The translations under genes and the position numbers were made by a program. Below the pieces are notes generated by a model, which saw only the letters and a program-made list of their open reading frames with translations, was not told the DNA's origin and did no database searches. This document shows positions 4,546 to 28,812 of a stretch of DNA of 30,077 nucleotides, piece by piece. The stretch comes from Candidatus Eiseniibacteriota bacterium (lineage in GTDB: Bacteria; Eisenbacteria; RBG-16-71-46): the NCBI GenBank assembly GCA_044222065.1, contig JBGAOA010000032.1, positions 19,575 to 49,651 on the forward strand, read 5' to 3'. Numbering within the stretch: position 1 is the stretch's first letter; each line of letters starts with the position of its first letter.

Positions 4546-4629
4546 CGTGCGCGGGCCCCCCGAGAACGCCGAACCGGCGCGCCCCTCGCGGAGCGCGCCG
4601 GCAGCATACGACGGACGCCGAGCCCGGTT

Positions 4630-9295: not shown

Positions 9296-10282
9296 TCAGT
9301 TCGGCGGGGTGAAGACGAACGGCGCCTGGAACGTTGTCGAGCCTTCGGCGATCGCCGGGAACTTCCAGTCGTGGATCTGCGAGAGCGCGCACGATTCGAG
9401 GCGCGCAGAGCCGACCGTGTTGCGCACGACCGAGACCTCGGTGACGGCGCCCGAGGCGGCGACCGTGATCGCGACGACGAGCTTGCCCTTGAGCGTGGGG
9501 TCGCGCTTGAGCTCGTTGCCGTAGCAGTACTGGATGCCGGCCGCGTACTTCTGGATCACGGCGAGCAGCGAGGCGTTGCTGCGGTAGATGCCGGGCGCGG
9601 CGCCGCTCGAGCGCGGATCGCCGCCGCCTCCGCCGCCGCCGCGATCGACGTCGGACGCCTGCAGCGAGCCGATCGCGACCATCTGGCCCGCGACGCCCGA
9701 GCCCGCGAGGTCGCTGCCCGCGCCGCTCGAGGCGAGGCGGCTCTCGTAGCCCGCGAGCTGACCGTCCGAGCGGCCGCCGCCGACACTGCGGCCGCGGCGC
9801 CGCCCGACGGGCTCGCCCTGGTCGCCGGTGGCGGCGAGGGCGTTCGAGAGCGCGCCGAGGTTCTTGTCGAGCGCGCTCGTCGCGCGCGCGAGCTCCTGCG
9901 TCGCCTGCTCGGCTCGCTGGCGTCCGAGCTTCCCGGCGTCGGGATCGACTTCGGGCGCGCGCCGTCGCGCGGGCGCGACCGGCGTCGGCTCGTTCACGAT
10001 GCCGTCCGGAAGCTCGCGCACGGCGAACTGCCGCACGGTCGCCTGCGAGGCCGGGGCCGGGGGCATCGGCGCCGGCATGCGCAGCACGACCTCGCGATGC
10101 GGTTCGGGCAGCACGACCTTCACGATCTGCTGCTCGGTGCGCGGCCACACGACCCACAGCAGCAGGAACACGGCGATCGCGAGGCCGGAGGCGATCATCA
10201 GGCTGCGCGAGACGCGCTGCCCGTTGCCTTCGGACTGCGCGCGTCGCTGCGCGCTCATCACGAGTGCCATGCTCGCGATCAT
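9296..10282 (-). CDS. AgmX/PglI C-terminal (TonB-C-like) domain protein, GltG-like, 328 aa
   Basis: Start MIASMALV at 10282 (ATGA overlap). One TM helix, a Pro/Gly-rich linker, and C-terminal IQYCYGNELKRDPTLKGKLVVAITV...LESCALSQIHDWKFP...PFVFTP. Confidence 0.85.
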   Translation of the reverse strand: MIASMALVMSAQRRAQSEGNGQRVSRSLMIASGLAIAVFLLLWVVWPRTEQQIVKVVLPEPHREVVLRMPAPMPPAPASQATVRQFAVRELPDGIVNEPTPVAPARRRAPEVDPDAGKLGRQRAEQATQELARATSALDKNLGALSNALAATGDQGEPVGRRRGRSVGGGRSDGQLAGYESRLASSGAGSDLAGSGVAGQMVAIGSLQASDVDRGGGGGGGDPRSSGAAPGIYRSNASLLAVIQKYAAGIQYCYGNELKRDPTLKGKLVVAITVAASGAVTEVSVVRNTVGSARLESCALSQIHDWKFPAIAEGSTTFQAPFVFTPPN

Positions 10283-10686
10283 CGGGAGTTCTCCTTCGGC
10301 ACGAGGGGAGAGGCCGCGCCGGTCTCGGTGACGCGCGCCGGCAGCGGCGTCGCCTCGCCGAGCTCGCGGCTCGTCCGCAGGTAACGGCGGTGGTGGAAGT
10401 CGAGGAAGCGGCGCTGGTCGCGCGCCGTGATGAACAGCACCTGGGGCACCGGGATCTCGCCCTCGATGTGCACGTCGTCGAGCTGGCGCGGACCGGCGGC
10501 GCCACGGGCGCTCGCGTTCGTGCCGGCCGCGGCCTTCTTCGTCGCGGCGACGCGCTCGGCGCGCGCCTTCGCGGCCGGATCGGCCGCGGGCTTCGCGGCC
10601 GCGCGCGACGGCGCCGCGTCGGACGCCGGCGCCGCCCACAGGGCGATCGCGAGCAGCAGCAGGGACGGACGGAGCGGTCGGATCAC
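10279..10686 (-). CDS. small secreted GltF/CglF-like protein, 135 aa
   Basis: Signal peptide, Ala/Lys-rich linker, and motif LDDVHIEGEIPVPQVLFI resembling the GltF 'IEG..xKP' core. It lies between a TPR gene and the GltG-like gene. Confidence 0.6.
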   Translation of the reverse strand: MIRPLRPSLLLLAIALWAAPASDAAPSRAAAKPAADPAAKARAERVAATKKAAAGTNASARGAAGPRQLDDVHIEGEIPVPQVLFITARDQRRFLDFHHRRYLRTSRELGEATPLPARVTETGAASPLVPKENSR

Positions 10687-11696
10687 GGCTGGTCTCCTCC
10701 TTCGGCGAGCGGCTTCGGCGAGATCGCGCCGAACGCTTCCGCGAGGTGGTCGGGATCGGCGTGCGAACGCTCCCAGTACTGCTCGAACCAGCGCTTCGCC
10801 GCCGCGTCGTCGAGCGTGTAGTACTTCTCGAGGATCGCGAGGTTGTAGTAGGGGCCCGGCAGCGCCGGGTTCAGTTCGATCGCGCGCAGGAAGCCGCGCC
10901 GCGCGTCCTTCGGATCGCCGGAGCGCAGCCGCGTGATGCCCCAGTTGTTCTGCGCGACGGCGCTCTTCGGGTCGTCGTCGAGCGCGTCCTCGGCGATCGC
11001 CTTCGCGTCGTCCGGATGTTCGCCGCGGAGCCGCACGTAGACGATCGCCGAGCGCGCCTCGCGCGGCGACGACTTCGGCAGGGCCGCGAGCGCGGCCTCC
11101 GCGAGGTCGGGGCGGTCGAGCGCGTCGTAGTGGAGCGCGAGCCCGGCGAGGAGCTGGACGGGCACGCCGTCGGGGTAGGCGTCGGAACGCTGGCGCGCGG
11201 CTTCGAGCAGCTGGACCGCCTCCTCGTGGCGGCCGTCGGCGAACAGCAGCCGCGACAGCAGCGACAGTGCGGGCGCGTACGTGGGCGATTGCGCGAGCGA
11301 CGCACGCAGGTCGCGCTCCGCCGCGCCGCCCGCACCGCGCTCGATCTCGACCTCGGCGGCGCGGAACGGCCAGTAGGGCTCCGCGGGCTCGCTCGCGGCG
11401 CGCGCGCGCGCGGCGTCGAGCGGATCGCTCGGCGTTTCCTCGGCGGCTACCTCGTCGTGCTTCGCCTTCTTCTTCGACGGCTCGTCGGCTCGGCGCTCGG
11501 CCTTCGGCGGCTTCGGCGACCTGGCCGCCTTCGCGGGCTTCGAGGCGCCGCCGTCGGCGAGCACCCGCGCCTCGTCCTTCGTGCGCTTCGCGGCCTTCGC
11601 CTTCTTCTCCTTCTTCGGCTTCTTCGCCGCCTTCGGCTCGGCCGACGCGGTCGCGGACGGCACCGTGCGCGAGTCGTGGAGGCCGAGAAGGCTCAC
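10683..11696 (-). CDS. tetratricopeptide repeat protein, GltE/AglT-like, ~337 aa
   Basis: GTG at 11696 with AGGAG RBS and GTGA overlap. Lys-rich N-terminus. TPRs such as AQNNWGITRLRSGDPKDARRGFLRAIELNP and PYYNLAILEKYY. Confidence 0.75.
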   Translation of the reverse strand: MSLLGLHDSRTVPSATASAEPKAAKKPKKEKKAKAAKRTKDEARVLADGGASKPAKAARSPKPPKAERRADEPSKKKAKHDEVAAEETPSDPLDAARARAASEPAEPYWPFRAAEVEIERGAGGAAERDLRASLAQSPTYAPALSLLSRLLFADGRHEEAVQLLEAARQRSDAYPDGVPVQLLAGLALHYDALDRPDLAEAALAALPKSSPREARSAIVYVRLRGEHPDDAKAIAEDALDDDPKSAVAQNNWGITRLRSGDPKDARRGFLRAIELNPALPGPYYNLAILEKYYTLDDAAAKRWFEQYWERSHADPDHLAEAFGAISPKPLAEGGDQP

Positions 11697-14600
11697 GGCT
11701 GCTCCTTCCTGAGTTGCGTGCGCGCGCGATCGCCGGCCGCGTCCTCGTCGAGCGCGCCGAGACCGCCGGCCGAAGTCTTCGGGGCCTTGCCGGCCACGAC
11801 CGGATATTCCATCTCGGGCCGGTAGAAGAACCGGTTGCCGAGCCGCGACCACAGCGAGGTCTGCGCGCGCGCGAGCCAGTCGTCCGGAGCGTCGTCGCGC
11901 GACTTCTTGAGCGCTTCCGTCCACACCGTCTCGCCGCGGTCGTAGAACTGCTGGGCCTTGTCGCCGAGCACCTGCACGTACGCCTTGAGGTCGTCCCCGT
12001 GGAGATCGGCCGGCCGCTCGCTGCGCTCCAGCGCTTCTCCGAACGCGATGAGCGACTGCCCGATCCGGTACGCGGAGGCGTGTGCCCACTCGGGCACGCC
12101 GGTGTCCACCGACTTGCGGTAGAGCGCCATCGTCTCGTCGAGCTTCTTCTGCCGCGCCGCGATGGACTTCGCGAGCGGCAGCGTGAGCTTCACGGCGTCG
12201 TACTTCGCGAACGCCTCCTCGCCCTCGAGGAAGCGCACGCGCGCCACGATCTTCTTGGACGCCAGCTCCGGATGGGCCGCGGCGCGCCGCAGATAGTCCG
12301 CGAGGTAGCTCGCCGGCGCCGCAGCCGCGGCGGCCTTCGCGCCCTTCGCGGCCGGCTTCGGCATCACGGTCGAGATCGGGCGGTCCGCCGTGACGCGGTC
12401 GAGGTCGCGCATCGCGAAGCCTTCCAGGATCTCGATCGCGGTCGAGTCGTCCTTCGGGTACTGCTTCAGGTAGGCGAGGCGCTGCTCGTCGGCGCGCGTC
12501 GAGAGGCCCGCGGCCTGCCACAGGTCGGCGGCCTTGAGCCACGCGTCGTCGGCGTCGGCGTCCTTCGGGTAGCGGGTCGCGAAGCGCGCGTAGGCGTCGG
12601 CGCCCTGTTCCTTCTCGCCGGCCTCTTCCCAGCGGTGCGCGATCTCGAGGTGGGCGTCGCGCACGTAGTCGCTCTTCGGGAAGTCGCGGATCAGCGCTTC
12701 CATCGCGAGCACGCCGTCGCGCGTGCGGCCGGCCTTGAAGTAGGCGAGGCCCGCGCGGTACGCCGCGACGTGCGCGTGTTCGTAGTTCGGGAACCGGCGC
12801 GCGACCTGCTCGAACAGCTCGGCGTGGCGCGCGTACGCGTTCGAGTCCGCTGCGACCGAGGCCTCGGCATTCTTGTAGGCGCAGATCGGCACCGCCGTCG
12901 CGAGCCGCTTCGCGAGCGTGTCGTTGCCGGCGCGCTGCGCGACGACGAGCGCCTCTTCGTAGGCCGTGCCGGCGGCCGCGAAGTCGCCCGAGCGGAACAC
13001 GGCGTCGGCGCGCAGGCCGAGCGCGAGCGGCGCGCGCTTGTCGTCCGGCCAGCGCTTCGCGAGCCGCTCCATGTCCTGCGCCGCGCGTTCCCACCAGCCG
13101 TGCGCGAAGCCGAGCTGGCCCTCGCGCCACACGATGTCCGCGCCCTGCGCGTGCGACGGGAACCGCTCGAGCAGCGCGTCGCCGGCCGCGATCACCTCGC
13201 GCGCGAGCGAGTCGCGTCCGAGCGCCTGCGCGCCCTTCGGCGTCGTTCCGCGGTACCACGCGTCGGTCACCGCCACGCGCTGCCACAGCGCCTGCACGGC
13301 GAGCGAGTCATCGCCGCTCTTCGCCGCGGCGGCGTAGTGGGCGAGCGCGCCGGGCCAGTCCTCGAGCTGCGCGCTCGCTTCGCCCGCGGACAGCTCGAGC
13401 GTCGGCGCCTCGGGACGGTTCGGGAACTTCGCGAGCAGCGTCTCGTACAGTTCGAGCGCCTGCTTCCAGTCGCTCTTCGCGCCCTTCTCGCGCGCGAGCC
13501 GGTGGTAGTCCTTCGCGACCGCGCTCCAGGCGCCGAGCGCGAACGCCTCGCCGGCCGCGCGCAGCGAGTCCGACGCCTGCGCTTCGGCCCACGCGCTGCC
13601 GGGCGCGAAGTGCGCCGCGACGTCGAGTCGCGCCTCGCGCGCGCGTTCGTCGTGGTTCGCGCGCTGGTGGGTCTCGATCAGCCGCTCGGCGGTCGTGAGC
13701 GCCTGCGCGTCGAGCGGGTAGCGGGCGAGAAAGCGGCGGTCGGCGTCGGTCGCATCCGCGTACAGGCCGTAGCGTCGGAAGTGCTGGCCGAGCGCGAGCA
13801 GCACGCGGCGCTCGTAGGGCCGCGCGCCGAGCGAGTCGAAGTACGACGCGAACGCGTCGGCGCCGCCGGCGCCCGCGAGCGAGTGGACCAGGTACGACTC
13901 CGCCTCGCCCTCGACGTCGGCGGCGATCTCGGCGCGCCGCGGCGAGTCGTACAGGTCGAGCACGGCGCGGAACGCGTCGGCGGCCTCGAGGAAGCGGTCC
14001 TGGTTGAAGCGCGCCCAGCCCTTCTTGTAGAGCGCGATCGCGGACAGCCCCGCGTCCTTGCCGGCCGCGGCGTGCGTGTAGAACGCGACGCCTTCGTCGA
14101 AGCGCTTCTCGTTGAAGCGCAGGTCGCCGAGGCGGAGCGTCGCCTCCTGCACGTACGGCGACTCCGGATGGAGCGTGACGAGATCGGTGAAGAACGCCTC
14201 GGCCTCGGGGTTCGCCTCGTCGGCGAGGATCATGCCGGCGTTGAAGCGCACGGCGTCGAGGTGCTCGAAGTCGCGGTCCTCGGCGAGGATCTTCCGGTAG
14301 AGCGCGAGCGCGTCGGCGTGCGTGAGCACCGGCAGCGGTCCGGGCTCGCGGCCCGCGGCCTGCGCGGCGAGGTAGGCTTCCATCGCCTTGCGGAACTCCT
14401 GCCGCGCGGCGACGAGTTCCAGGTCCGCGAGCCGGAAGCGCGACTCGCCGCGGGCGCCCGACTTCGGGTGCTTCGCGAGGAACGACTGGAGCGCCTCGAT
14501 CGCGACTGCGCGCCAGCGCGCGGACTCGGGATCGTCGAACGCTTCGTCCGCCTGCTGCTGCGTGCGCACCGTGTCGCCGTCGGCCGGGCCGCCCGGGCGG

Positions 14601-16697
14601 TCGAGCTTCACGGCGAGACCGTAGGCCGAGGCGGCGAGGCCGTAGTCGAGGCCCTCGCGCTCGGCGGTGAGCCCCGCGAGCGCGCGTTCGAGCGCGGCGC
14701 GCGCCGCGCGTTCGCGCTGCCGCGCGTGCGCGACGATCAGCGTGTCCACGCGCCGTTCGAGCCCGCCGATCGCGGCGACGAGCCGCCGCTCCTCGTCGCT
14801 CGTGTGCGAGGCGGCGAGGTTCGAGTCGATGCGCACGCCGAGCGTGCGCGCCCACGCGAGCGCGCGCCGGGCGTCTTCCGCCTCGCGCGCGGCGCGGTCC
14901 ACGAGGCCCGGACGCCACGCCGTGTCGTACGAGCGCGCGAGCAGCCCCGGGGCGTCGGCCGCCATGCGCGTCGCGAAGCCCACGAGGTCGCGCGCGAGCG
15001 CTTCCTCGACCGCGACGACCGAGTCGGCCGGTTCGTAGCCGAGCGGGGCCGGCACGGCGCGCACGCGGTTCGGGCCCTCGAGGTGGAAGTGCTTCATGGC
15101 CGCGAGCCACAGCAGGTGCCGCTCGCACGCGACGAGCTGCGCCGCCGTGCGCTCGAGCACGTGCCGCGTCGCCTCGTCGCGCACGTCGCGCAGGCGGCGG
15201 TCGAGGTCGTCGAGCGTGCGGCGCAGCGAGTCGAGCAGCGCGCTCTTCGCCTCGAGGTCCGCGGCCTCCTGGCGTGCGAGCCCGAGTCCGCCCGTGAGGT
15301 AGCGGGTCAGGGACGACAGCGCCTCGCGCTCGCGGGCGAGGTCCCAGCGCGCACGCTGGAGCGCGCCTTCCGCCTCGCGTTCGGCGTCGGCCGTGGCCTC
15401 GATGCGGCGGCGCTCCTCGCCGTTCGGCGCATCGACGGTCCAGGTCATCGTCGCGCCCCACGGCGCCGACGCGGGCGCGGGCAGCTCGAACGCGGGCGGC
15501 GCGGACAGGTCGGTCGAGGCGTCGGCGAGCGCGTTCGCGAACAGCGCCGCCGAGACGCCGTCGAGCGCGAGCGCGTCCGAGAGCGGATCGCCCGACTCCC
15601 ACGCCTTCCAGCGCGCCTCGAAGTTCCCCGAGGCGAGCTCCCACTGCAGCGACTGGCGGTTCGCGTCCCAGTCCTGGTCGGCGCGCTCGTACAGCGCGCG
15701 GGCGTGGGCCCAGCGGCCCTCGTCGAGCGCGTGACCGGCGAGCGCGAGCCACACCTCGCGGCGCGCGCCGTAGGTCGAGTCCGAGGCCAGCACCGACTCG
15801 AGGTCGGCGGCGCCCTCGGCGCCGCGGCCGTCCTCGAGCCGCGCGAGTCCGAGCGCGTGCCGCGCGCGCGCGGCGTAGCGGCTGCCGGCGGGCACTTCGG
15901 CGAGCAGCGCCGACGGATCCTCGCCGGCGCGCGCCGCGGCCGCGAGCCGCAGCTTCGCCGCGCCGACGAGGTCGCGGCCGAGCGCCGTGGCGGTGTCGCC
16001 CGAGGCGAGCCGGCGTCCACGTGGCTGTCGTCGCGGCCCGCCGCGGCGAGCGCGCGCGCCTCGACGAACGCGACGAGCGGCGTCGCGCGGGCGGCGCCGT
16101 CGAGTTGCTCGAGGAACGCGAGCGCCGGCGTCGCCGCGCTGGACGAGCAGGTTCTGGCGACGAGCGCGTCGGCCGCGGCGTCGCCCGAGGGCGACGCGGG
16201 GCGGCGAGGCCGCTGTCGGCTGCTCCGCCCGCGCGCGCGCCGCCGAGCTCGCGAGTTCGAGCGTCAGCGCGCACACGCTGTGCCGGTCCCACGCCGCGAC
16301 GGCGCGAGCGATCTTCTCCGAAAGGCTCGCGCTGGCCGGTGCGCAGGTAGTGCGCGAGCAGGAACGCCGCGCGGTCGGCCTCGCCGAACGACGGCCGCGC
16401 GCGAAGTCCACCTGCTCCAGGTGTTCGATCACGCCGCGCACGTTGCCGCGCGCGCGTGCTCGTAGGCCGCACGTCCGAGCGGCAGCACCCCACGTCCTCG
16501 CCCGGCTGCGCGCCGATGAGCGCGCGCGTCATCGGCGCGGGCGCGGGCGCGGCCGGGGCCGGCGCCGCGGCCGCGGGGCGCTTCGCGGCGTGCGCCGCGG
16601 GCGCCGTGGCGAGCAGCGCCGCGGCGAGCGCGAACGCCGCGCCCGCACTCCGGGGCCGCGGACGGAGGCGGCCGTCGTGGCTCGGGAAGGAGGTCAC
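11693..16697 (-). CDS. giant secreted TPR protein (GltD/AgmU-like C-terminal part with GltC-like N-terminal part), ~1,660 aa; apparent frameshifts at ~16000-16500
   Basis: Signal peptide from GTG 16697 (AFALAAALLATAPAAHA). Protein-like sequence hops frames between 16500 and 16000, then runs as an uninterrupted TPR-rich frame to 11693 (ESRFRLADLEL, ALYKKGWARFNQ, AAYRAGLAYFKAG, SAYRIGQSL). Confidence 0.75.
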
Positions 16698-16704
16698 GCG
16701 CCGC

Positions 16705-17619
16705 TCAGGAGCCCGTGCTCGGAATCGTCGTGTCGTGGAGCCAGACGCTCGCGCGGATCGAGGGCGCGCCCTGCTCGGGGCTCACGCCCGAGAGGTCGAG
16801 CCGCAGCATCGTGATGCGGTCGCGCGCGGGCTCGAGCGTGACGTAGCCCGAGTCCCCGGCGGGCGACGGGCCCGCACCGAGCGCGACCTCGAGGAACTGC
16901 TCGCGCGGCTCCACGAACTCGTGGAACACCTGCACGACGCCGCCCTTCGCGAGCGACTCGCGCTGCTCCACGCCGAGCTCGATGTCGAACGAGCTGCCGT
17001 CCTCGAGCCGCACCGACAGCCGGTCGAACGCGGCGTTCGCGGGCCAGCCGCTCGCGACCACGACGAGCGCCGTGCGCTGGTGGCCCGTGAAGTCGGCCTG
17101 CAGCACGCCGAGCCGGCCGCGCTGGTCGGCGAGCAGCCGGTCCATCTGGTCGAGCTGCGATTCGAGCTTGCCGAGGTCGGTGATGCTCGCGAGCAGCTCC
17201 TGGCGGCGTCGCGCCTCCTCGGTCGACGACACGGAGTCGCGCGCGCTCGTCGCGTCGGCGAGCAGCCGCTGGTAGTCGAGGTAGCGCGGGTCGATCGGCG
17301 CCGCGCCCTCGTCCTTCGCGGCCGGCTCTTCGTGCAGCAGGTCGTAGCGCGCGCGGATGAAGTCGCGGTTGGCCTTGAGGAACGAGAGCGTCGGGTGCTT
17401 CGCGCGCTTCGGCTTCACGCGCTCGACCGTCACGGCTTCCGCCGCGTCGGGGATGTCGGCGGCGGCGAGCGTCACGGGCGCTTCGGCGCCGCGCGCCCAG
17501 CGCACGCCGGCGGCGAGCGCCGCGAGCGCGATCAGCGTGCCGAAGGCGAACACGACGGGCAGGTTGCGGTCGGGCGCGGCGGCGAGCGCGCGGGCGCGCA
17601 CGGTCGGGAACGCGATCAC
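16705..17619 (-). CDS. hypothetical exported protein, coiled-coil plus beta-sandwich, 304 aa
   Basis: GTG 17619 with GGAGGGG RBS. N-terminal TM/signal segment and a coiled coil. LSVRLEDG...EQRESLAKGGVVQVFH resembles the small 'ALRRGGVQRLY' protein that precedes TPR genes in gammaproteobacterial Glt-core clusters (recalled, not searched). Confidence 0.7.
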   Translation of the reverse strand: MIAFPTVRARALAAAPDRNLPVVFAFGTLIALAALAAGVRWARGAEAPVTLAAADIPDAAEAVTVERVKPKRAKHPTLSFLKANRDFIRARYDLLHEEPAAKDEGAAPIDPRYLDYQRLLADATSARDSVSSTEEARRRQELLASITDLGKLESQLDQMDRLLADQRGRLGVLQADFTGHQRTALVVVASGWPANAAFDRLSVRLEDGSSFDIELGVEQRESLAKGGVVQVFHEFVEPREQFLEVALGAGPSPAGDSGYVTLEPARDRITMLRLDLSGVSPEQGAPSIRASVWLHDTTIPSTGS

Positions 17620-17621
17620 GA

Positions 17622-18182: not shown

Positions 18183-18192
18183 CGGCGCCCTC

Positions 18193-19119: not shown

Positions 19120-19132
19120 CGAGACGTCCCTT

Positions 19133-20398: not shown

Positions 20399-20421
20399 GG
20401 CTCCGTCGTCCTTCCGTCCGG

Positions 20422-22068
20422 TCACTGCACCACGACGATGCGGTTCGCGAAGCTGTCTTCGCCGGCGTCGAGGCGCGCGAAGTACACGCCCGCCTTCACG
20501 CCGCGGCCCGCGTCGTCGCGGCCGTCCCACGTCGTCTCGTTGAAGCCCGGCGCGAAGGCCGGACGCAGCGTGCGCACGACGCGGCCCTGCGCGTCGAACA
20601 CGCGCAGCGCGAGCTTGCCGTGCACTTCGTTCGGCAGCACGAACGAGATCCGCGTCCACGGATTCGCGGGGTTCGGCGTGTTGCCGAGCAGCATCGGTCG
20701 CGACGGCGGGCCGGACACGACGCCGCCCGCGAAGTGGAACGTCGTGCTCGCGCTCGTCGCCGGGCCGTTCTCGTAGCTCGAGGCGGCGCGGACGCGCACG
20801 AGGAAGTCGCTCGCCGGGTCGGCGCCCGCGAGGTCGGCCGCGGTGAGCGGGACCGCGTGCGCGCCGGCGTCCAGCGTGCCGACCGTGCGGCGCGACAGCG
20901 CGCGGCCCGTCGTCGCGTCGGTCACGTCGATCGCGATCTCGGCGCGGTCGGTCAGCTCGAAGCGCAGTTCGGGCTCGGACGTGCCCGCGACCTCGAAGTG
21001 CGTCAGCTCGAGGCCGAGGTCCCACATCGCGATGCCGCTCTGGTCGGACCAGTCGGAGACGGTCAGCGCCGACGGCTGGCCGACGCGCGCGAGCGTGCCC
21101 GAGCGGTGGTCGCGCACGTTCGTGAACGGCACGTGCAGCGACTTCGGACGCGCGAGCCCGGCCGACATCTCGGCGACGGGTTCGAGCGCGGGGTTGAACT
21201 TCTTCACGAGCCCGGCGCGCGGCGCGGCGGCGTACACGTTGCCCCACGCGTCGGTGTCGAGCGACGTCACGACGTCGGCGCCGGCGACGGCCTCGCCGTC
21301 CCAGCGGAACGCGCCGCCCTCGAGGCGCAGGTGCGCGATGCGGCCGTTGTGCGCGTCGGCGACGTACACGTCGGGCGAGCTGCCCGCGCCCGAACGGCCG
21401 ACGGCGACCGCCATCGGGCCCGCGAAGCGGCCGGCGCCGCTGCCGAGCTCGCCGATCGAGGCGATCTCGCGCGCGCCCGCCGCGTCGAGCGCGTACGCGA
21501 CGACGCGGTTCTTGCCGGTCTCGGCCACGATCAGCACGTCGTCGCCGCCCACGAACGGCGTGCCGCCGTCCGAGTACGCGACGTCCTGCGGCGCGCCGAC
21601 GTTCGGGATCGCGAACGCGGGCGAAAGCGTGATGTCGCCGTGCTCGGTCGAGGCCTGGAGCACGAGCACGCGGTCGTTGCCGGCGTCGGCCACGTACACG
21701 CGGTCGTTCTCGTCCACCGCCAGCCCGCGCGGCTGCTTGAGCGCGCCGAGGCCGCCCGCGACGTCGAACGCCTTGAGGCTCTGGCCGCGCTCGCCGTAGA
21801 CGATGCGATTCCAAGCCGGGTCGGACACGATCTCGAAGTGGCGCGACTCGACGTACGGGAAGCGGTCGTACACGTCCACGTGCGAGATCGTCACGGTCGA
21901 GTACGGGTCTGCGAACAGATCGCGGTTCACGAGCTCACGGGACACGGAGCGCGTCAGCGACTGCACGCCGAGGTCGGGGGCGATCGGGGCGGAACGGAAC
22001 GTTCCGCCCGAGACCGGCTGCGCCGCGGCCAGCGCAAGGGTGAGCATCATCAGGGTGTGTCGTCGCAC
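20422..22068 (-). CDS. secreted NHL-repeat beta-propeller protein with C-terminal FlgD-Ig domain, 548 aa
   Basis: Signal peptide. NHL repeats (PRGLAVDENDRVYVADAGNDRV, GPMAVAV...VYVADAHNGRI). C-terminal NTPNPANP...LRVFDAQGRVVRTL...WDGRDDAGRGVKAGVYFARL. Confidence 0.88.
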   Translation of the reverse strand: MRRHTLMMLTLALAAAQPVSGGTFRSAPIAPDLGVQSLTRSVSRELVNRDLFADPYSTVTISHVDVYDRFPYVESRHFEIVSDPAWNRIVYGERGQSLKAFDVAGGLGALKQPRGLAVDENDRVYVADAGNDRVLVLQASTEHGDITLSPAFAIPNVGAPQDVAYSDGGTPFVGGDDVLIVAETGKNRVVAYALDAAGAREIASIGELGSGAGRFAGPMAVAVGRSGAGSSPDVYVADAHNGRIAHLRLEGGAFRWDGEAVAGADVVTSLDTDAWGNVYAAAPRAGLVKKFNPALEPVAEMSAGLARPKSLHVPFTNVRDHRSGTLARVGQPSALTVSDWSDQSGIAMWDLGLELTHFEVAGTSEPELRFELTDRAEIAIDVTDATTGRALSRRTVGTLDAGAHAVPLTAADLAGADPASDFLVRVRAASSYENGPATSASTTFHFAGGVVSGPPSRPMLLGNTPNPANPWTRISFVLPNEVHGKLALRVFDAQGRVVRTLRPAFAPGFNETTWDGRDDAGRGVKAGVYFARLDAGEDSFANRIVVVQ

Positions 22069-22105
22069 GTGCTGCTCCTCTCGTGAGCGTCCCTGCCGAC
22101 TGGGA

Positions 22106-23245
22106 TCAAAAGTGATACGTGAGCTGCGTCGTCAGGATGTTCGCGGAGTAGTTGTTGCTGTTGAAGTACCGCTCGTACGCCGCGCGCACTCCCATGCGCC
22201 CGAGCACGGGCGTCTTCACTTCGAGCGTCGAAAAGTCCATATCGAGAGCGACTCCGAACAGGTGGCTCGACAGGTCCGACAGGCGGTAGTCGCCCGAGCG
22301 GTAACCGTCGATCCCGTTCACGTCCGTGTATTCGTCGCGATAGAAGTCCGCGGCGTTCTGCGAGTACCAGCGGTAGTCGTAGCTCGCGAACACGCCGTGC
22401 GTGATGTACTGGCTCAGCGTCGTGCCGACCTCGTTCGAGAGGACGCCCCAGTCGTCGTTGTAGAAGCGGTAGTGCAGCTTCACGCTCGACCGGTTGCCGA
22501 GGTACTGGTTGAGCTTCAGGAACGCGTCGCGCCGCTGGCGCGCGTCGGGGTGCCGCTCGGGCGCGTGCGTGCCGCCGGCGTACACGTTCCGGTAGGGGTT
22601 GTGCTGCAGGCCGTTCACCAGGTTCATCTCGACGCCGACCCGCGCCTGCAGCGTCGGCGTGACGATCCGGGTCGCGACCACGTTCCAGTGCAGCGTCGTC
22701 TTGTGGTCCTTGCCCGCGTTCGTGTCGTCGTCCTGGACCGGGTCGATCGCGTCCCAGCCGTAGCTCGCGCCGACGGACAGGTTGAGCTGGTCGTCGAGGT
22801 CGCGGTTCCAGCTCGCGCCGACGAGCTGGCCCAGATAGTCCTTCTCGCTCGACAGGTAGTACTGCGCCGACAGCCGGCCGGTGGAGTACTCGCCCTCGAG
22901 CTCGTTGCGCACCTTCGAGAAGTCCTGGAACGCGTTGCCCGAGATCGGGCGGCTCGCGGTCGTGATCGCGTCCACGGCCTCCTGCGTTCCGGGCGGCGCG
23001 TCCACGGCGGGCACGTTCACCTTTTCGTTGTTCCAGTGCAGCGTCAGCGTGCGGTTCTGCGGCAGGGCGAACGTGTAGTCGCCGATCGCCGAGCGGACCG
23101 ACACGTGCTGCGAGTCGTTGAAGTACTGCATCAGTCCTTCGACGACCTGGTCGTCGAACGACGGAAAGGCCGCGGCCGGCGCGGCGCACGCCGCGCACGC
23201 CCCGATCGCGAGCGCGATCCGGTTCGGTACGCGCGTCAGTTGCAC
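22106..23245 (-). CDS. DUF3570-family outer-membrane beta-barrel, 379 aa
   Basis: MQLT start overlapping the DUF4266 C-terminus. Motifs VDAITTAS, SSEKDY, GLQHNPYR, PERHPDARQR, YRFYNDDWG, YRWYSQNAADFY and DYRLS. C-terminal YHF. Confidence 0.85.
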   Translation of the reverse strand: MQLTRVPNRIALAIGACAACAAPAAAFPSFDDQVVEGLMQYFNDSQHVSVRSAIGDYTFALPQNRTLTLHWNNEKVNVPAVDAPPGTQEAVDAITTASRPISGNAFQDFSKVRNELEGEYSTGRLSAQYYLSSEKDYLGQLVGASWNRDLDDQLNLSVGASYGWDAIDPVQDDDTNAGKDHKTTLHWNVVATRIVTPTLQARVGVEMNLVNGLQHNPYRNVYAGGTHAPERHPDARQRRDAFLKLNQYLGNRSSVKLHYRFYNDDWGVLSNEVGTTLSQYITHGVFASYDYRWYSQNAADFYRDEYTDVNGIDGYRSGDYRLSDLSSHLFGVALDMDFSTLEVKTPVLGRMGVRAAYERYFNSNNYSANILTTQLTYHF

Positions 23246-23478
23246 GCGCAGCCTCCGCCCGCGCCGCCGTTCCCGCCGGTCGAGCCCTCGCGCGCGTCGA
23301 GCGCCTTCACGCGCCGCGCCGCTTCCTTCTTGAACGTGTCGAACGACATGATGCGGTCGCCGAGGTGCTCGCGCTCGTACGGACGCACGGTCGCGCAGCC
23401 GCTCATCGCCACCGCCAGAGCGGCCAGCAGCGCGAGCGCGACGCCGCGCCCGAGGGCGCTCGTGAGCCGGGTCGTCAT
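23236..23478 (-). CDS. DUF4266-family small lipoprotein, 80 aa
   Basis: Start MTTRLT at 23478 (ATGA overlap). Lipobox MSG|C, VRPYEREHL, and terminal REGSTGGNGGAGGGCACN. Confidence 0.88.
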   Translation of the reverse strand: MTTRLTSALGRGVALALLAALAVAMSGCATVRPYEREHLGDRIMSFDTFKKEAARRVKALDAREGSTGGNGGAGGGCACN

Positions 23479-24116
23479 CGCATTCCTCCCTGAACGTCGT
23501 CGTCGTTGCTCGCGGCGCGCGAGTCGAGCAGGCGCCGCGCGACGGAACGGACCTGCGCGAGCGACTGCGCGTCGGCGCCGCCGCCCGACCAGGCGACCTG
23601 GCCGTCGCGGTCGAACACCACGGTGAAGGGGATCTGTCCGAGGTCGAGCTGGCGCGCGAGACCGTCGGTGCCGTCGCAGTAGACCGGCATCCGGAGGCCG
23701 CGCGAGCGCGCGAAGCGGCGCGCGTTCTCGGCGTCCGAGTCGATCGACACCGCGATCACGCGGCCGCCCTGCTTCGCGATCTCGGCGTGCAGCGCGTCGA
23801 GTTCGGGCAGCTCGCGCTGGCAGGGCCGGCACCAGCTCGCCCAGAAGTTCACGACCACGACCTCGCCGCGCGCGCTCGCGACCGAAAACGTGCGCCCGTC
23901 GAGCCCGCGCAGCGTGTGCGCGCGCACGGCGTCGCGCAGCCGCGACGCCGAGGGCGCCGAGACCGCGCGATTGCCCGCCTCGGGCGCGCCCGCGAACGCG
24001 AGCGACGCGACGAGCGCGAGCGCGAGGCCGCGCGCGACCGGGGCCGCGCCGCGGCACGGCGCGGGCCCCTGCGAATTCGAACGGAACGTGGTCACGGGTG
24101 TCGAGGTCCCGGTCAC
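23475..24116 (-). CDS. TlpA/ResA-family thiol-disulfide oxidoreductase, ~213 aa (start uncertain)
   Basis: VVVVNFWASWCRPCQRELP, IAVSID and IPFTVVFDRDG. N-terminal hydrophobic segment. GTG 24116 overlaps the upstream stop; GTG 24095 is an alternative start. Confidence 0.9.
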   Translation of the reverse strand: MTGTSTPVTTFRSNSQGPAPCRGAAPVARGLALALVASLAFAGAPEAGNRAVSAPSASRLRDAVRAHTLRGLDGRTFSVASARGEVVVVNFWASWCRPCQRELPELDALHAEIAKQGGRVIAVSIDSDAENARRFARSRGLRMPVYCDGTDGLARQLDLGQIPFTVVFDRDGQVAWSGGGADAQSLAQVRSVARRLLDSRAASNDDDVQGGMR

Positions 24117-26089
24117 TTGTACTGGGCGCCCATCAGCACCCAGAGGTTGAACTTGCGCCGCTCCTCGGGCGTGAGCGCGTCGAGGCCGGTCGGGTGGAAG
24201 CCCTGGCCCGAGCGCGGGCCGACGGCGAGCACGTAGTCCACGAGGCGCGAGCGCCGCGGGAAGGCGGGATCGACTTCCTGCGTCGTCATCTTCATGGACT
24301 CGCCCGACAGGTTGACGTAGGCGCGCGGGAAGATGCGGTTCATGCGCACCGTGTCGGGGACGAACGTCAGGTCGAGGTTGCCCGCGGCCGCGGTCGTGTC
24401 CACGCCGACGATCGTCGGCTGGTGGCACGAGGTGCACTTGGCCTGGACGATCGGGCCGATCGTGTTCTCGAAGTTGATGTGCTGCCACTGCGCGCTCGGG
24501 ACGTTCAGGTCGTGCGCCGGGAACATCGCCGCCTGCGGATTCGGGTTCGTCGGGAACGGTCCGCCCGGAACGCGGTCCTCGTGGCAGCCGGTGCAGCGGT
24601 CGAACGTCTCGCCGGGGCGCACGTAGAGGTGCGTGCGCTTCACGACGAAGCCGCGGCCCTTGTCGTCGAGCGTGGCGAAGCTGAACGGCGTGTTCGCCGG
24701 CACCTTGATGCGGAACGAACCGTCCGGATAGACCGGCGCCATGCCGATCAGCGAACGCATCTCGAACTCGTTCGCCGAGATCTCGTTGTTCATGCCGACG
24801 GTCGTCGGGATCGAGGCGATGACCGCGATGCTGTCGACCGCGTCCACGCCCTTGACCGGCACTTCCTGCCCGTCGCCCGAGCTGCGGTTGAAGATGTCCT
24901 GCGCCAGCATGAAGCCGTAGTCGAGCGTCTTGTTGAGCGTCGAGGCGATGATCGGCGGCTTCGGACGCGGCGCGAGCAGCTGCGCGTCGTACTCGTTCGA
25001 GTTCGGGTCGTTGTAGAGGAACGTCAGGTTGCCGAGCGAGAACGTCGCCGGGTCGCCGACCGTGCCGCCGCCGGCCTGGTTCAGCGTGAACGTGTAGAGC
25101 GCGTAGTCCACCTCGCCGTCCGTCGCGGCCGGCAGCGTGTACGAGGCGACGTAGCGGTTGCCGCCGATCGGATGCGGGAACTTGAACGCGCCGTAGGTCC
25201 AGGGCGCGCCGTCGTCGTTGACCTGCGCGGTGACGTTGTCGAAGTGCAGCGCCCAGCCGCCGAGCGCCGGATCCGCGGGACCCTGCTCGGGCTTCAGCAC
25301 CGCGAGCGGACCGGCGTCCTCGTTGATCATGCCCGACTCGATCGCGACGATGCGGCCGTCCGGCGTCGGCATCGGGTGGAAGAAGTTGCGGTCGTGCGGG
25401 CCGAACAGGTGGAACGTGCCCGAGCCGTCCGGATTCGTGAAGAACAGCGGGAAGCGGTTCATCGTCCCGAAGTGCTCCCAGCGCGTGTACAGGATGCGCC
25501 CGTCCGGCATGAGCATCGGGTCGAAGTCGTCGCTCTGGTTGTAGCTGATGCGCTCCATGTTCGAGCCGTCCGCGTCGGACGTGTACAGGTGCTCGGCGGG
25601 CGAGTGGTTGTACTCGTCCATCTCGCCGTCGCGGTTGCTCGTGAACAGGATGCGGCCGTCGGGGAGGTACAGCGGGTCGTAGTCGTCGCCGCCGCCGGTC
25701 GTCACCTGGCGCAGCCCGGTGCCGTCCGCGTTGATCTCCCAGATGTTCCGGTTCGGGTCACCCGCGCGGCGCATCGAGAACATGATCTTCGTGCCGTCGA
25801 AGCTCACGTCGGGATCCGACAGGCTCGCGCCGGTGAAGTTCGTGATCGGCGTGACCACCCCGTCCGGAGCGATCGGCGAGAGCTTGTACAGATTGCCCGT
25901 CGCCCAGCTGCGGTTGAGCGTCTCCTCGCCATCCGTCTTCACGAACACCAGAGCGTCCGTCGTGGGCTCCTGCTGAATGAGGTCGTCGGGCGCGCTCTCG
26001 CGACAGCCCGGCAGCGCGAGCTGAGCCGCGAGCCCGGCCGCCGCGAGAATCGCAACGGTGCGCGTTGAGAGGTGCGTGAGTCGCTTCAT
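24113..26089 (-). CDS. HzsA-related (hydrazine synthase alpha middle-domain) PD40 beta-propeller di-haem c lipoprotein, 658 aa
   Basis: Start MKRLTH at 26089, lipobox LPG|C. PD40/TolB-like repeats (DPDVSFDG, DPLYLPDGRILFTSNR, DGRILYTRWEH). Middle domain VYPDGSFRIKVPANTPFSFATLDDKGRG...VRPGE. CTGCH at 24581-24595 and CTSCH at 24422-24436. Confidence 0.85.
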   Translation of the reverse strand: MKRLTHLSTRTVAILAAAGLAAQLALPGCRESAPDDLIQQEPTTDALVFVKTDGEETLNRSWATGNLYKLSPIAPDGVVTPITNFTGASLSDPDVSFDGTKIMFSMRRAGDPNRNIWEINADGTGLRQVTTGGGDDYDPLYLPDGRILFTSNRDGEMDEYNHSPAEHLYTSDADGSNMERISYNQSDDFDPMLMPDGRILYTRWEHFGTMNRFPLFFTNPDGSGTFHLFGPHDRNFFHPMPTPDGRIVAIESGMINEDAGPLAVLKPEQGPADPALGGWALHFDNVTAQVNDDGAPWTYGAFKFPHPIGGNRYVASYTLPAATDGEVDYALYTFTLNQAGGGTVGDPATFSLGNLTFLYNDPNSNEYDAQLLAPRPKPPIIASTLNKTLDYGFMLAQDIFNRSSGDGQEVPVKGVDAVDSIAVIASIPTTVGMNNEISANEFEMRSLIGMAPVYPDGSFRIKVPANTPFSFATLDDKGRGFVVKRTHLYVRPGETFDRCTGCHEDRVPGGPFPTNPNPQAAMFPAHDLNVPSAQWQHINFENTIGPIVQAKCTSCHQPTIVGVDTTAAAGNLDLTFVPDTVRMNRIFPRAYVNLSGESMKMTTQEVDPAFPRRSRLVDYVLAVGPRSGQGFHPTGLDALTPEERRKFNLWVLMGAQYK

Positions 26090-26123
26090 GATGGTCTGAG
26101 TCCCTCCGGTGCGGGTCCGTCGG

Positions 26124-26864
26124 TCACGGCCGGACGAATCGGTAGAACGAGAGCCCGATCGTCTGCTCGACGTAGTCGTAGGCCACGACGCCGTCACGAT
26201 CCCGGTCCCGTCCGAACACGGTCGCGCGCCGCACATCGGCGCGTACTGCGAGATCACTGCGGATGTAGAACTCGAGCCCGCCACCGAACGCGAGTGCGTT
26301 CTTCGTCACCGGGTCGGCGTTCAGCGACCGACCCGGGAACACCATGACCATCCCGTAGCCCGCCGCGCCGTACGGCTGCAGCCGGCCCGGGAACGGATGA
26401 CGGAGCACGGCGGTGAGCGAGTGCATCACCGAGTGCACCGACTTCGCGGGGTTGTGGGCGAGCGTGCCCTCCCAGCCGAGCCACGGATTCGGGTTGTAGG
26501 CGAAGCGGAACGTGAACAGCCGCTCGTCGCCGAACGAGCCGAAGCCGGGGCTGAACGAGACGCGGTTCTGGAACGGGCGCGGGCCGCCCTCGAGCCGGTA
26601 GGGATGCGCCGCCACGTCGGGCACGAGCGGCACGAGCGCGTTCGGCCGCGCCGGACGCGCGATCGCGTGCGTCGGCAGCGACGCGTCGTCCCACGCGTCC
26701 GGATCGGCGCTGCCGCGGCGGGCGTCCGGGAGCGCGCTCGCGACGAGCGTGTCGGCGTTCGCGACGAGGCTCGAGTCGGGCGCGTCGTCGCCGCGAACGG
26801 CGGGCGCGCCGGAAACGAGCGCGAGCGCCGCGAGGGCGCAGGAGGCGAGGAGGCGGGGCGTCAC
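26124..26864 (-). CDS. outer-membrane beta-barrel domain protein (GltA/GltB-like size), 246 aa
   Basis: GTG 26864 (GTGA overlap) and signal peptide. LQPYGAAGYG, LAFGGGLEFYI, VRADVR and IGLSFY. Confidence 0.82.
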   Translation of the reverse strand: MTPRLLASCALAALALVSGAPAVRGDDAPDSSLVANADTLVASALPDARRGSADPDAWDDASLPTHAIARPARPNALVPLVPDVAAHPYRLEGGPRPFQNRVSFSPGFGSFGDERLFTFRFAYNPNPWLGWEGTLAHNPAKSVHSVMHSLTAVLRHPFPGRLQPYGAAGYGMVMVFPGRSLNADPVTKNALAFGGGLEFYIRSDLAVRADVRRATVFGRDRDRDGVVAYDYVEQTIGLSFYRFVRP

Positions 26865-27313
26865 TGGATCGTGCCCGCCTGGATCCACGAGCGGATCGCG
26901 ACGTAGTCGGTGTCGGCCGTGGACGCGAACGGCTTGTACGCGTGCGGCGTGCCGCCGGCGACGGCGGCGAGCGGCTTCAGCAGCAGCGGGCTCGAGTCGC
27001 GATTCGTGCCCCAGACCTGCAGCGACGCCTGGTCGAAGTCGAACTGCGAGTTCTTCGCGCCGGGAGGGGAGAGCTGGAACGTGCCGCGGATGCCGCCGCC
27101 GTGGCAGTCGCCCTCGGCGTCACAACCGCGCCGGGTGAGCGCCGGTTCCACCGTGGAGGCGAACGAGGCGTAGCTCAGCACGAGCTGCGACCCGCCCGTG
27201 GGCGGAGCCGGCGGCTCGGTCGGCGAGCTGCACCCCGTGACCACCAGCGGCAGCGCCAGGGCCACGAACATCGTCGCGACCGTCTCGCGGCCGCGCAGCG
27301 ATCTCCCGAACAC
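26861..27313 (-). CDS. lipoprotein with planctomycete-type cytochrome c-like domain (CX5CH), 150 aa
   Basis: GAGGAGG RBS and lipobox VTG|C. FASTVEPALTRRGCDAEGDCHGG...SSPLLLKP...PH...AIRSWIQAG. Confidence 0.75.
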   Translation of the reverse strand: MFGRSLRGRETVATMFVALALPLVVTGCSSPTEPPAPPTGGSQLVLSYASFASTVEPALTRRGCDAEGDCHGGGIRGTFQLSPPGAKNSQFDFDQASLQVWGTNRDSSPLLLKPLAAVAGGTPHAYKPFASTADTDYVAIRSWIQAGTIQ

Positions 27314-27477
27314 GGTGGTCGAACCTCCTCATCGTGCGATCTGCAACCCGCGACGTCCGCGCATGCGAGGCGCCCGGGGTCTCGATCGCACCGCAACGCG
27401 CGCACGCGATCGCTAGGACTTGCGTTCCTTCGTCACCCATGGTCCTCCCCTCCTCCGGGAGGATGGGGCACTCCTCA

Positions 27478-27493
27478 GGCAAGAGGCTTGCCA
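27478..27493 (-). promoter_or_regulatory. sigma54 (-24/-12) promoter for the envelope operon
   Basis: Minus strand reads TGGCAAGCCTCTTGCC, i.e. TGGCA...TTGC with exact GG-N10-GC spacing, about 165 bp upstream of the first gene. Confidence 0.65.
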
Positions 27494-27628
27494 CGCGGCA
27501 ATTCGGGAACGCAGCGCGCACGAATGAGGGAAAACTCCGCGCGGGCGACGCGCGTGCGCGATTCCTCGTGAAGAAGAGTGCGAGGAACCTTCTACAAATT
27601 GCCGCTCAACTCGCGCGCCCGGAGCGGG

Positions 27629-27694
27629 CGCATCGTGCGAGATGCGTCGTGCGAGGCCGAACGACGTTCAGCGTGACGCACCGTGCAAGACGCG
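27629..27694. promoter_or_regulatory. candidate enhancer (bEBP) binding sites: two copies of an 18-bp dyad
   Basis: CGCATC-GTGCGA-GATGCG (27629-27646, perfect 6-bp arms) and CGCACC-GTGCAA-GACGCG (27677-27694). The copies are 15/18 identical, 48 bp apart, and upstream of the sigma54 site. Confidence 0.4.
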
Positions 27695-27723
27695 AAGGGC
27701 GCTTTGTCGCGGGCGCGCGCGGC

Positions 27724-28812
27724 TCAGAACCAGGCGACGCGGAAGTGCTCGCGCGCCGCATCCTCGAGCACGAAACGCTCGCGCAGCGAGGATTCCACCC
27801 ACACGGTGTCCACGCCGGCCGCACCGGGGGCGACGAGGATCACGTCCAGTTCCGGATGGGCCTTCGCGATGCGCCGCGCGCCGTCGAGCCCGAGTACGAA
27901 CAGCCCGGTGTCCCACGCGTCGGCCTCCATCGCGCTGCGCGCGAGCACCGTCACCGCGATGAGTCCCTCGGCCGGGCGGCCGGTGCGCGGATCGAGGATG
28001 TGTCCGTACGTGCGGCCGTTCGCGGCGACGAACTGCTCGTACTTGCCCGAGGTCGCGATGCCGCCGCGATCGAGCGGCACGCGCGCGAAGTACGGCACGC
28101 GGTCGCGCGGATCGCGCACGCCGATGCGCCAGTGCGCAACGCCGGGAGGCGCGCCGAGGCCGCGCATGTTCCCGGACAGGTCCACGAGCGCGTCGGTGAC
28201 GCCGGCGGCCGCGAGCTTCGAGGCCGCGCGGTCCACGGCGTAGCCCTTCGCGATGCCGCCGAGGTCGATCTTCACGCCCGCCGTGTCGAAGCGGATCGAG
28301 CGTTTCGCCCCGTTCCAGCGCAGGTGACGCCATCCGACCCGGCGGAACGCGGCGGCGACCTCGTCCTCGGCGGGCACGCGCCTCGGACCGCCGAGGAATC
28401 CCCACAGCCGCACGAGCGGCTCGACCGTGATGTCCATTGCGCCCTCGCTCGCGCGCCCGACGCGCACGGCTTCGTCGAGCACGCGCGCGACTTCGCGCTC
28501 GACGACGGTCGCGCGCGTGGCGGCGACGCGGTTGATGCGCGCGACCTCGCTCGTCTCGGTCCAGTTCGTCATGAGCGAGTCCACGTACGCGAACGAGCGG
28601 TGGGCGAGGGCCGCCGCGGGCTGCGTGCGCGCGGAGTCGTCCGTCACGATCGTGACGTTCGCGTACGTGCCCATCGTGCGAATCGGGAAGGGGACCGCGC
28701 GGCGCGCAACGGCCGACCCGGCTTCCTCCGGCGGTGCGGCGGCGACGGCGGCGGCCGCGACGGCGGCGGCGAGCGCCGCGACGGCGCGGCGGCGAAGCGT
28801 GTGATCCCTCAC
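27724..28812 (-). CDS. apbE: FAD:protein FMN transferase ApbE, ~362 aa
   Basis: GTG 28812 with GAGGGAG RBS. TMGT, SEVARIN, MDITVEPLVRLWGF, IDLGGIAKGYAVD, IATSGKYEQF, HILDPRTG and ADAWDTGLFVLG. Confidence 0.95.
   Translation of the reverse strand: MRDHTLRRRAVAALAAAVAAAAVAAAPPEEAGSAVARRAVPFPIRTMGTYANVTIVTDDSARTQPAAALAHRSFAYVDSLMTNWTETSEVARINRVAATRATVVEREVARVLDEAVRVGRASEGAMDITVEPLVRLWGFLGGPRRVPAEDEVAAAFRRVGWRHLRWNGAKRSIRFDTAGVKIDLGGIAKGYAVDRAASKLAAAGVTDALVDLSGNMRGLGAPPGVAHWRIGVRDPRDRVPYFARVPLDRGGIATSGKYEQFVAANGRTYGHILDPRTGRPAEGLIAVTVLARSAMEADAWDTGLFVLGLDGARRIAKAHPELDVILVAPGAAGVDTVWVESSLRERFVLEDAAREHFRVAWF

Follow-up and report, generated by a model that had tools for sequence, protein, structure and literature searches.

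The DNA analysed here (hereafter the window; positions are counted from its first letter) is a stretch of 30,077 nucleotides (nt) of contig JBGAOA010000032.1, from the Candidatus Eiseniibacteriota assembly GCA_044222065.1. It carries a 16-gene operon in which a haem, thiol and flavin-type module of the outer membrane is joined to homologues of the core of the Myxococcus Agl-Glt machinery, and which has lost the ExbB/ExbD/ExbD motor genes found in most relatives. An earlier note on this DNA had listed the 16 co-oriented genes with apbE immediately upstream, and had proposed that they encode an undescribed envelope machine. Pfam and NCBIfam domain searches, from which the genes of this Glt-linked operon are labelled, verified the families and the listed order of the 16 genes and of apbE, all of which lie on the minus strand. 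The genes are less tightly packed than the 'mostly overlapping' arrangement first described: of the 12 junctions measured directly inside the operon, five are overlaps and seven are gaps of 2–37 nt. The apbE gene (27724–28812; PF02424, E 3e-81), encoding a flavin adenine dinucleotide:protein flavin mononucleotide (FMN) transferase, is indeed the next gene 5′ and is directly upstream in 12 of the 16 relatives whose upstream DNA was read; however, it stands outside the unit, set apart from the 16 genes by a 410-nt gap that holds a conserved sigma-54-type motif.

The first gene of the operon encodes a small CX5CH lipoprotein with a second conserved His (26861–27313; CX5CH in 15 of 17 alignment rows), which, judging from this motif, is likely to be an atypical monohaem cytochrome c. 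It aligns (HHalign 95%; five control pairs of these family comparisons all gave <2%) with a CX4CH lipoprotein that adjoins the HzsA-like gene in Gammaproteobacteria. The third gene (24113–26089; PF18582, PF07676) encodes a dihaem lipoprotein with a propeller, a middle domain, two CxxCH motifs and a distal His. Its predicted structure (pLDDT, the predicted local distance difference test, 85) has the full-length fold of hydrazine synthase alpha (5c2v_A; template modelling (TM) score 0.74, 20% identity), and both CxxCH motifs and the distal His are present in 46–47 of the 47 rows of the HzsA-like alignment. Hydrazine synthase was therefore considered, and rejected: the fold fits, but the active-site residues and the partner genes do not. 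Dietl and co-workers reportedly described in 2015 the roles of a Tyr haem ligand and a Cys zinc ligand in the active site of the alpha subunit. The operon protein, unlike that subunit a lipoprotein, has a Val where hydrazine synthase alpha has this Tyr four residues after the first CxxCH, in a column that is not conserved, and contains no further Cys for a zinc site; neither hzsB nor hzsC, for the beta or gamma subunit, was found among the operon genes in the Pfam and NCBIfam searches. As both the Tyr and any extra Cys are missing, the protein is not a hydrazine synthase. It has been suggested that hzs-like genes form a wider family with other substrates (PMC10732223), and the HzsA-like family accounts for some 'hzsA-like' annotations in non-anammox sludge genomes. 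Elsewhere in the genome, contigs C85, C89 and C35 encode very large multihaem proteins with up to 42 CxxCH motifs, a pointer to extensive extracellular electron transfer.

The next three genes encode a TlpA/ResA-type thioredoxin with a CxxC motif and an uncertain start codon (23475–24038; PF00578, NF002854), which resembles the ResA/DsbE maturation proteins in NCBIfam; a DUF4266 lipoprotein whose alignment shows a C-terminal CxC, with the end CACN (23236–23478; PF14086, E 4e-14); and a DUF3570 protein (22106–23245; PF12094), predicted to form a 16-strand outer-membrane barrel (model pLDDT 91.5) for which the PDB yielded generic barrel matches only. Together with apbE, all four genes of the ApbE-DUF3570-thioredoxin-DUF4266 cluster named by Méheust et al. 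2021 (PMC8238504) are thus present in the operon region. In that survey, the Chlorobium DUF3570 is a proven ApbE substrate flavinylated at two sites, and 316 clusters lack an adjacent DsbD, as does this one, for which a DsbD-type domain is encoded elsewhere in the genome; the DUF3570/DUF4266 gene trio is also mentioned in passing in 10.1101/2023.06.07.544157. The operon departs from the published 'DsbD systems' in its short DUF3570 subtype, with one degenerate site as opposed to two [S/T]GA[S/T] motifs, and in its HzsA-fold and CX5CH lipoproteins, its additional barrels and its Glt-like core, which go unmentioned in the accessible part of PMC8238504. The degenerate ApbE-type motif (residues 92–98) lies in a long loop after strand 3, modelled with low confidence; it is unchanged in 16 of the 17 relatives' loci that show the site, and a canonical motif aligns with it in Caldithrix (L081). 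Since the long loops of the model follow odd strands, this loop is likely to face the outer side of the membrane, and we infer that this copy is flavinylated there. A model of the DUF3570-DUF4266 complex scored 0.59 against 0.01 for the best control, in a range (≤0.60) where 18 of 157 solved complexes passed the calibration and where both of the 2 passing mismatches, among 215, were found; at least 65% of the contacts agreed between runs and the partner had a pLDDT of at least 54, which hints weakly at a contact between the two proteins. Beside chemotaxis genes on contig C78 (L020:9300–12100), the same genome has another TlpA-DUF4266-DUF3570-ApbE cluster, of the plain kind, in which the flavinylation motif is canonical, and in genome G032 such a plain quartet is found directly upstream of, and divergent from, the Glt-linked operon (L002).

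The remaining products of this part of the operon are mostly barrels and orphans. Outer-membrane barrel 1 (26124–26864) is related to TIGR04565, the GltA/B/H-like class, although its PF13505 and TIGR04565 matches are both under cut-off, and gives an HHalign value of 97% to a gammaproteobacterial barrel; in the family comparisons, barrels align with gammaproteobacterial ones at 97–99%. The third barrel carries an SH3_3 domain (18193–19119; TIGR04565 70.6 bits, cut-off 60). Barrel 2 (19133–19823), which is frameshifted in this assembly only and whose three frames align with intact relatives, was also considered as a TIGR04565-type barrel, but no profile match to these barrels was obtained. An NHL propeller with a FlgD-Ig domain and a C-terminal domain of the type IX secretion system (T9SS) type (20422–22068; PF01436, PF13860; TIGR04183 25.8 bits, cut-off 23) occupies the same position in the Caldithrix locus L081; the genome contains a SprA-like gene, and the protein is likely, from its domains, to be a surface cargo of a T9SS-like route. 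Two genes could not be assigned: that of a lipoprotein conserved in relatives (19820–20398), with no Pfam family and only Atlas leads <0.9, and that of an exported protein (17622–18182), with no Pfam or NCBIfam match and an Atlas value of 0.94 to unnamed clusters. The protein homologue search brought back close kin only.

The second half of the operon is homologous to the Agl-Glt core, defined as gltC, gltD, gltE, gltG, aglQ, aglR, aglS and one extra gene, a core whose function in non-gliders was unknown (Luciano et al. 2011, PMC3169522). The earlier note had taken two tetratricopeptide repeat (TPR) proteins, GltF, GltG and barrels as this core; the homology to the core stands, whereas the barrels lie outside the published definition. 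The Glt names used here were assigned from NCBIfam models, from gene order and from comparison with six Myxococcota loci. The GltG-like protein (9296–10282) is of TonB type, with a membrane anchor, a linker and a C-terminal AgmX/PglI domain (NF033768, 88.8 bits, cut-off 40); it aligns with gammaproteobacterial GltG (HHalign 98%) and is far under the cut-off of the full-length Myxococcus model NF033760 (66.7 vs 650). It has no FHA domain in Pfam or NCBIfam, and as its AgmX/PglI domain is the single over-cut-off match in the genome, there is no GltJ. The GltF-like protein (10279–10686), small and exported, has a conserved short beta-strand motif and gives HHalign values of 54% (E 1e-4) to Myxococcota GltF-position proteins and 15% to gammaproteobacterial ones, so that its identity is proposed from position and at the level of this motif only. 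The GltE-like TPR protein (10683–11696) gives 97% to the gammaproteobacterial GltE-position protein, itself matching NF033758 at 2e-11, under cut-off, while no NF033758 match was obtained for the window's copy. No signal peptide or lipobox is visible in this copy, in contrast to its relatives; at 11500–11696 (minus strand) its N-terminus is a Lys/Ala-rich low-complexity stretch in place of their lipoprotein signal, reflecting an assembly error or a real change. In G028 (L012:12800–17400), no GltE-like match is present between the giant TPR gene and gltF, and several genomes of that genus likewise gave no GltE match.

The giant TPR gene (11693–16697), with frameshifts in its 5′ part, encodes a likely fusion of GltC-like and GltD-like proteins. 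The C-terminal part of the product matches gammaproteobacterial GltD-like proteins at E 5e-37, and the profile of its family matches Myxococcota proteins in the GltD position, before GltE (best 5e-75). The N half gives an HHalign value of 93%, for the gammaproteobacterial comparison only, to a separate TPR protein of 656 amino acids in the GltC position; the gene is split in L052 and fused in L057. Upstream of it, the product of 16705–17619 gives 95% to its counterpart preceding the TPR genes in gammaproteobacterial core loci, a gene that heads all five HzsA-less core loci examined, and it is likely, by this comparison, to be the 'additional gene' of the Luciano core. The order of these genes is that of the gammaproteobacterial core loci. 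Differences from the Agl-Glt core are the attached haem/thiol/flavin outer-membrane module, the three small barrels, and a phylum outside those covered in the accessible part of Luciano et al. 2011 (PMC3169522). Among the operon proteins, the only ones searched for them, no match to the CglB/GltK adhesin, GltI or AglZ was found. One gammaproteobacterial core-only locus (G112, L177:4400–9900) has three tandem GltC-like TPR genes.

The union of the two halves extends well beyond this genome. Among 18 relatives' loci, chosen for strong DUF3570 matches and long contigs, the order is collinear in 17 as far as the contigs reach, the exception being G054, in which the halves are adjacent but divergent. 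Across 153 genomes of the same phylum, an HzsA-like gene was found in 50 and a GltG-like gene in 53; both occur in 49 (the unpublished G038 being counted among them), the HzsA-like gene alone in one and the GltG-like gene alone in four. For Gammaproteobacteria, 241 genomes were sampled, 240 of which were scored for GltD: 29 of the 30 HzsA-like-positive genomes also have a GltD-like gene, where 5.9 would be expected if the two were independent, and 22 of these 29 pairs lie within 30 kilobases (kb) on one contig. As Glt homology and cross-phylum co-occurrence were both found, neither of the grounds on which the earlier note would have given up its reading, halves that do not occur together in other genomes or TPR and small proteins unrelated to Glt, holds.

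The redox quartet itself is less bound. Sixteen of the 54 DUF3570-positive gammaproteobacterial genomes (G102, unpublished, counted among the 16) are devoid of a GltD-like gene, and a sample of 80 DUF4266-pattern loci, drawn from 1/64 of the genome collection, comprises 75 with DUF3570, 14 with an HzsA-like gene and 3 with the core within 10 kb. In all five genomes searched among those with the 14 HzsA-like-bearing loci, a GltD-like gene was present. Most quartets are therefore plain, and association with the core is a trait of the HzsA subtype. Complete fused loci with a motor are L052, L057, G189, G200 and G203. Genes for a LamG dihaem protein, a Tat-type protein and a DUF1585-like monohaem protein are frequent additions in gammaproteobacterial loci. 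DUF3570 loci of Gammaproteobacteria or Bacteroidota type also lie on L053, L067 and L071, contigs that bear the labels Halobacteria, Bifidobacteriaceae and Klebsiella and are probably mis-binned.

In 10 of the 16 extension loci of relatives, and in G032, gltF and gltG are separated by an exbB-exbD-exbD set. The window has no motor genes at this place, and its gltF and gltG genes overlap each other. A misassembly at this junction was ruled out, as five independent runs (four DNA runs and one RNA-library contig) span it unchanged and without insertion. No dedicated ExbB orthologue was found in this 94%-complete genome, and a motor encoded elsewhere was rejected: only the generic Tol and ExbBD-TonB loci were found, with ∼30% identity compared to 48–70% for true orthologues. 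These retained Tol-Pal and ExbB-ExbD-TonB loci are possible lenders of a motor. Of 89 genomes of the family, 51 have a GltG orthologue, of which 37 have a dedicated ExbB and 14 do not; in 12 of these 14 the gene spacing leaves no room for a motor, the other two being too fragmented to judge. The earlier idea of a TonB-like energised complex thus fits most relatives but is conjectural for this copy, which is without a dedicated motor. The 12 motor-less genomes belong to nine genera, three of which also contain motor-bearing species.

In a tree of 38 sequences, the 12 motor-less GltG proteins form one clade (bootstrap 100). An N-terminal GltG motif is present in 25 of 26 motor-bearing sequences and in none of the 12 motor-less ones, as counted on the same alignment from which the motif was read, and as these 12 rows form one clade its loss is a single event. 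In contrast to this single clade, a concatenated tree of the upstream genes groups only five of seven motor-less genomes; the discrepancy may reflect a gltG end acquired by recombination or transfer. A fusion of ExbB to the motor-less GltG was considered and discarded, no profile match being obtained. The remainder of the operon is conserved at 45–75% identity among relatives. Taken together, these data show that a lineage comprising this copy and 11 others lost the motor genes and kept the rest, with a remodelled GltG N-terminus; the altered segment is likely to be that which docks on the motor.

The operon is headed by a sigma-54-type (-24/-12) promoter motif at 27479–27493 on the minus strand. 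The window has no other strict match; with 0.48 expected by chance, one such match by itself is not beyond chance, and its support is conservation: the relaxed motif was found in 15 of 16 relatives against a background of 13%, and it lies 207–232 nt before the CX5CH gene in 13 of them. Sigma-54 is encoded in the genome. Because one motif heads both halves, the junctions are tight, no terminator-like site was found on the operon's coding strand and apbE is set apart, the two halves are likely to form one transcript, with apbE apart. RNA-library contigs touch many genes, a presence that shows neither transcription nor level. A sigma-54 motif before the gammaproteobacterial HzsA-like genes was also considered; it occurs on the coding strand in 5 of 16 loci, at scattered distances, and is not conserved. 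A second stretch conserved in most relatives, at ∼27325–27350 (minus strand) just 5′ of the ribosome-binding site of the CX5CH gene, is a possible regulator site. The Rfam search returned no match.

To account for these features, we favour, while judging it slightly short of probable, a scaffolded outer-membrane thiol-flavin-haem relay that is assembled or gated by the Glt-like core, and that is neither a gliding machine nor a hydrazine synthase. Electrons would pass from a DsbD/CcdA-type carrier to TlpA and to the CxC of DUF4266, then to the predicted FMN on the DUF3570 barrel loop and on to the two haem lipoproteins. Flavins are established switches between two-electron and one-electron chemistry, a role that the FMN would play here between thiols and haems. 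At the capped haem site of the HzsA-fold protein a substrate outside the cell would be reduced, a metal complex or an oxidised organic ligand being the most plausible candidates. The TPR scaffold, the GltF-like protein and the TonB-like GltG-like protein would hold, load or gate this platform and not move the cell. In models of the Myxococcus machine, a strand of GltF is placed on the TonB domain of GltG, and lipoproteins sit on the outer face of the barrels (PMC11761067). By analogy, GltF would tie the scaffold to GltG, and display of the CX5CH and HzsA-fold lipoproteins would fall to the small barrels, in the way that GltA/B/H present GltK and CglB on the Myxococcus surface. In most relatives the dedicated motor would pull on GltG, whereas in this lineage the scaffold is likely either static or dependent on the housekeeping ExbBD or TolQR as a borrowed motor. 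The retention of all other components after the loss of the motor suggests a role for the scaffold in its own right, with force used for loading or gating. A wider proposal, a widespread undescribed trans-envelope machine in which a flavin-porin conduit (thiol to FMN to haem, with no multihaem wire) feeds a surface HzsA-fold enzyme on an ancestor-type Glt scaffold, seems to us rather doubtful; if true, the core of non-gliding bacteria would thereby have its function, and in the motor-less lineage the scaffold would have come to work without a proton motor, or with a borrowed one.

Several observations weigh against such a relay. The dependence is one-sided, the HzsA-like gene being nearly always with the core and the core often without it: 18 of 47 GltD-positive gammaproteobacterial genomes have no HzsA-like gene, nine of these no DUF3570 either, and neither a barrel nor a redox gene adjoins the five HzsA-less core loci examined. 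Among the 80 sampled DUF4266-pattern loci, the plain quartet occurs far more often without the core than with it, and the co-occurrence counts overstate the association because kin are not independent. The strict [S/T]GA[S/T] motif is absent from this DUF3570, which leaves one candidate site and not two; no neighbouring transporter or enzyme names a substrate; and 12 genomes dispense with the motor, which makes strictly energy-driven models less convincing. This last point bears also on a TonB-like reductive uptake, in which GltG would pull open DUF3570, with the flavin loop as plug, and import a metal or cofactor freed by reduction at the haem protein. In line with it are the TonB-type C-terminal domain, the ExbB/ExbD homologues in 37 of the 51 GltG-positive family genomes and the long loop, modelled with low confidence, that might act as a plug; in addition, Méheust et al. 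2021 (PMC8238504) reported 25 DUF3570 clusters that include a VIT1 iron transporter. We nevertheless consider uptake unlikely, as DUF3570 has 16 strands compared to the 22 of the plugged receptor of TonB-dependent transporters, the operon holds neither a receptor match nor an inner-membrane transporter, most DUF3570 clusters are without the core, the operon is kept without its motor, and the conserved promoter is of sigma-54 type with no other assignable conserved box seen.

We are similarly sceptical of a role in export or maturation, in which the core would secrete or flip the haem lipoproteins and TlpA, DUF4266 and DUF3570 would keep their cysteines (e.g., those of CX5CH) reduced, with no outward catalytic electron flow. 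Haem attachment takes place at the inner membrane; it needs no flavinylated outer-membrane barrel, and the quartet is widespread without cytochrome cargo. In its favour, the core is found without the HzsA module but the module hardly ever without the core, a cargo-like pattern; TlpA resembles maturation proteins; and it was proposed that the core might be enough for protein secretion (Islam et al., 10.1101/2020.07.22.216333). That the halves are two separate systems, joined only by shared regulation or block transfer, would agree with the occurrence of each alone elsewhere and with their divergent orientation or placement on other contigs in G054 and several gammaproteobacterial genomes, but is quite improbable given that the core is near-obligate beside the HzsA-like gene in two distant groups (49/50 and 29/30) and that barrels of the GltA/B class are placed within the redox half, core-only loci having none. 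Surface gliding or adhesion of the Agl-Glt kind has hardly any weight left: putative homologues of GltC/D/E/F/G and GltA/B-class barrels are present, but there is no motor, GltG is without an FHA domain and GltJ is missing, the genome carries flagellar and chemotaxis genes, and the core alone was judged unlikely to drive motility (Luciano et al. 2011, PMC3169522).

The relay that we favour may be set beside the MtrCAB-type porin-cytochrome conduits, in which a barrel and redox partners are combined with a multihaem wire. As in these conduits, a barrel and redox partners could carry electrons across the outer membrane; however, the operon has no multihaem wire, and in its place a predicted thiol-flavin path with an attached trans-envelope TPR/TonB-like scaffold. 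The word 'undescribed' in the earlier note has to be narrowed: the redox quartet was already described (Méheust et al. 2021, PMC8238504), whereas its union with the Agl-Glt core was not found in the literature searched, on which subscription papers and supplementary neighbour tables may bear. Both halves being published, what is new here is the motor-less form of the joined system and its conserved sigma-54-type promoter motif. The role of the core in non-gliders is a question dating from 2011, and a pathway for DUF3570 flavinylation has been wanting since 2021; because the two are so closely linked in two distant groups, both can be addressed in cultured carriers such as Microbulbifer epialgicus DSM 18651 (L066), and the motor-less branch is a natural experiment in which scaffold function is set apart from force generation.

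Frameshifts in the window affect barrel 2 (19133–19823) and the giant TPR gene, in the latter within its first 700 nt. Contigs of independent runs carry indels at the breakpoints in barrel 2, one of them in four of four DNA runs, and three other runs carry indels at those in the giant TPR gene. These frameshifts are therefore assembly errors, and pseudogene decay was ruled out. Small indels were also seen in other runs near 28200 (apbE) and 13217 (giant TPR gene), so the window may hold more local errors. Downstream of the operon, at 2298–8980 on the minus strand, lie genes for a PAS histidine kinase with a membrane sensor, a response regulator-HDOD protein, a response regulator with an HD domain, a proline dehydrogenase and a thiolase; upstream and divergent, at 29058–30077 on the plus strand, is a gene for an HDOD protein that is truncated where the contig stops. 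Neither set is conserved beside the operon in most relatives examined. The source bacterium, probably an Eisenbacterium given that its phosphoglycerate kinase shares 81% identity with the one from a genome labelled Ca. Eisenbacteria and 54% with that from an Ignavibacteriales genome, turns up in public runs from bioreactors, biofilms, wastewater and activated sludge.

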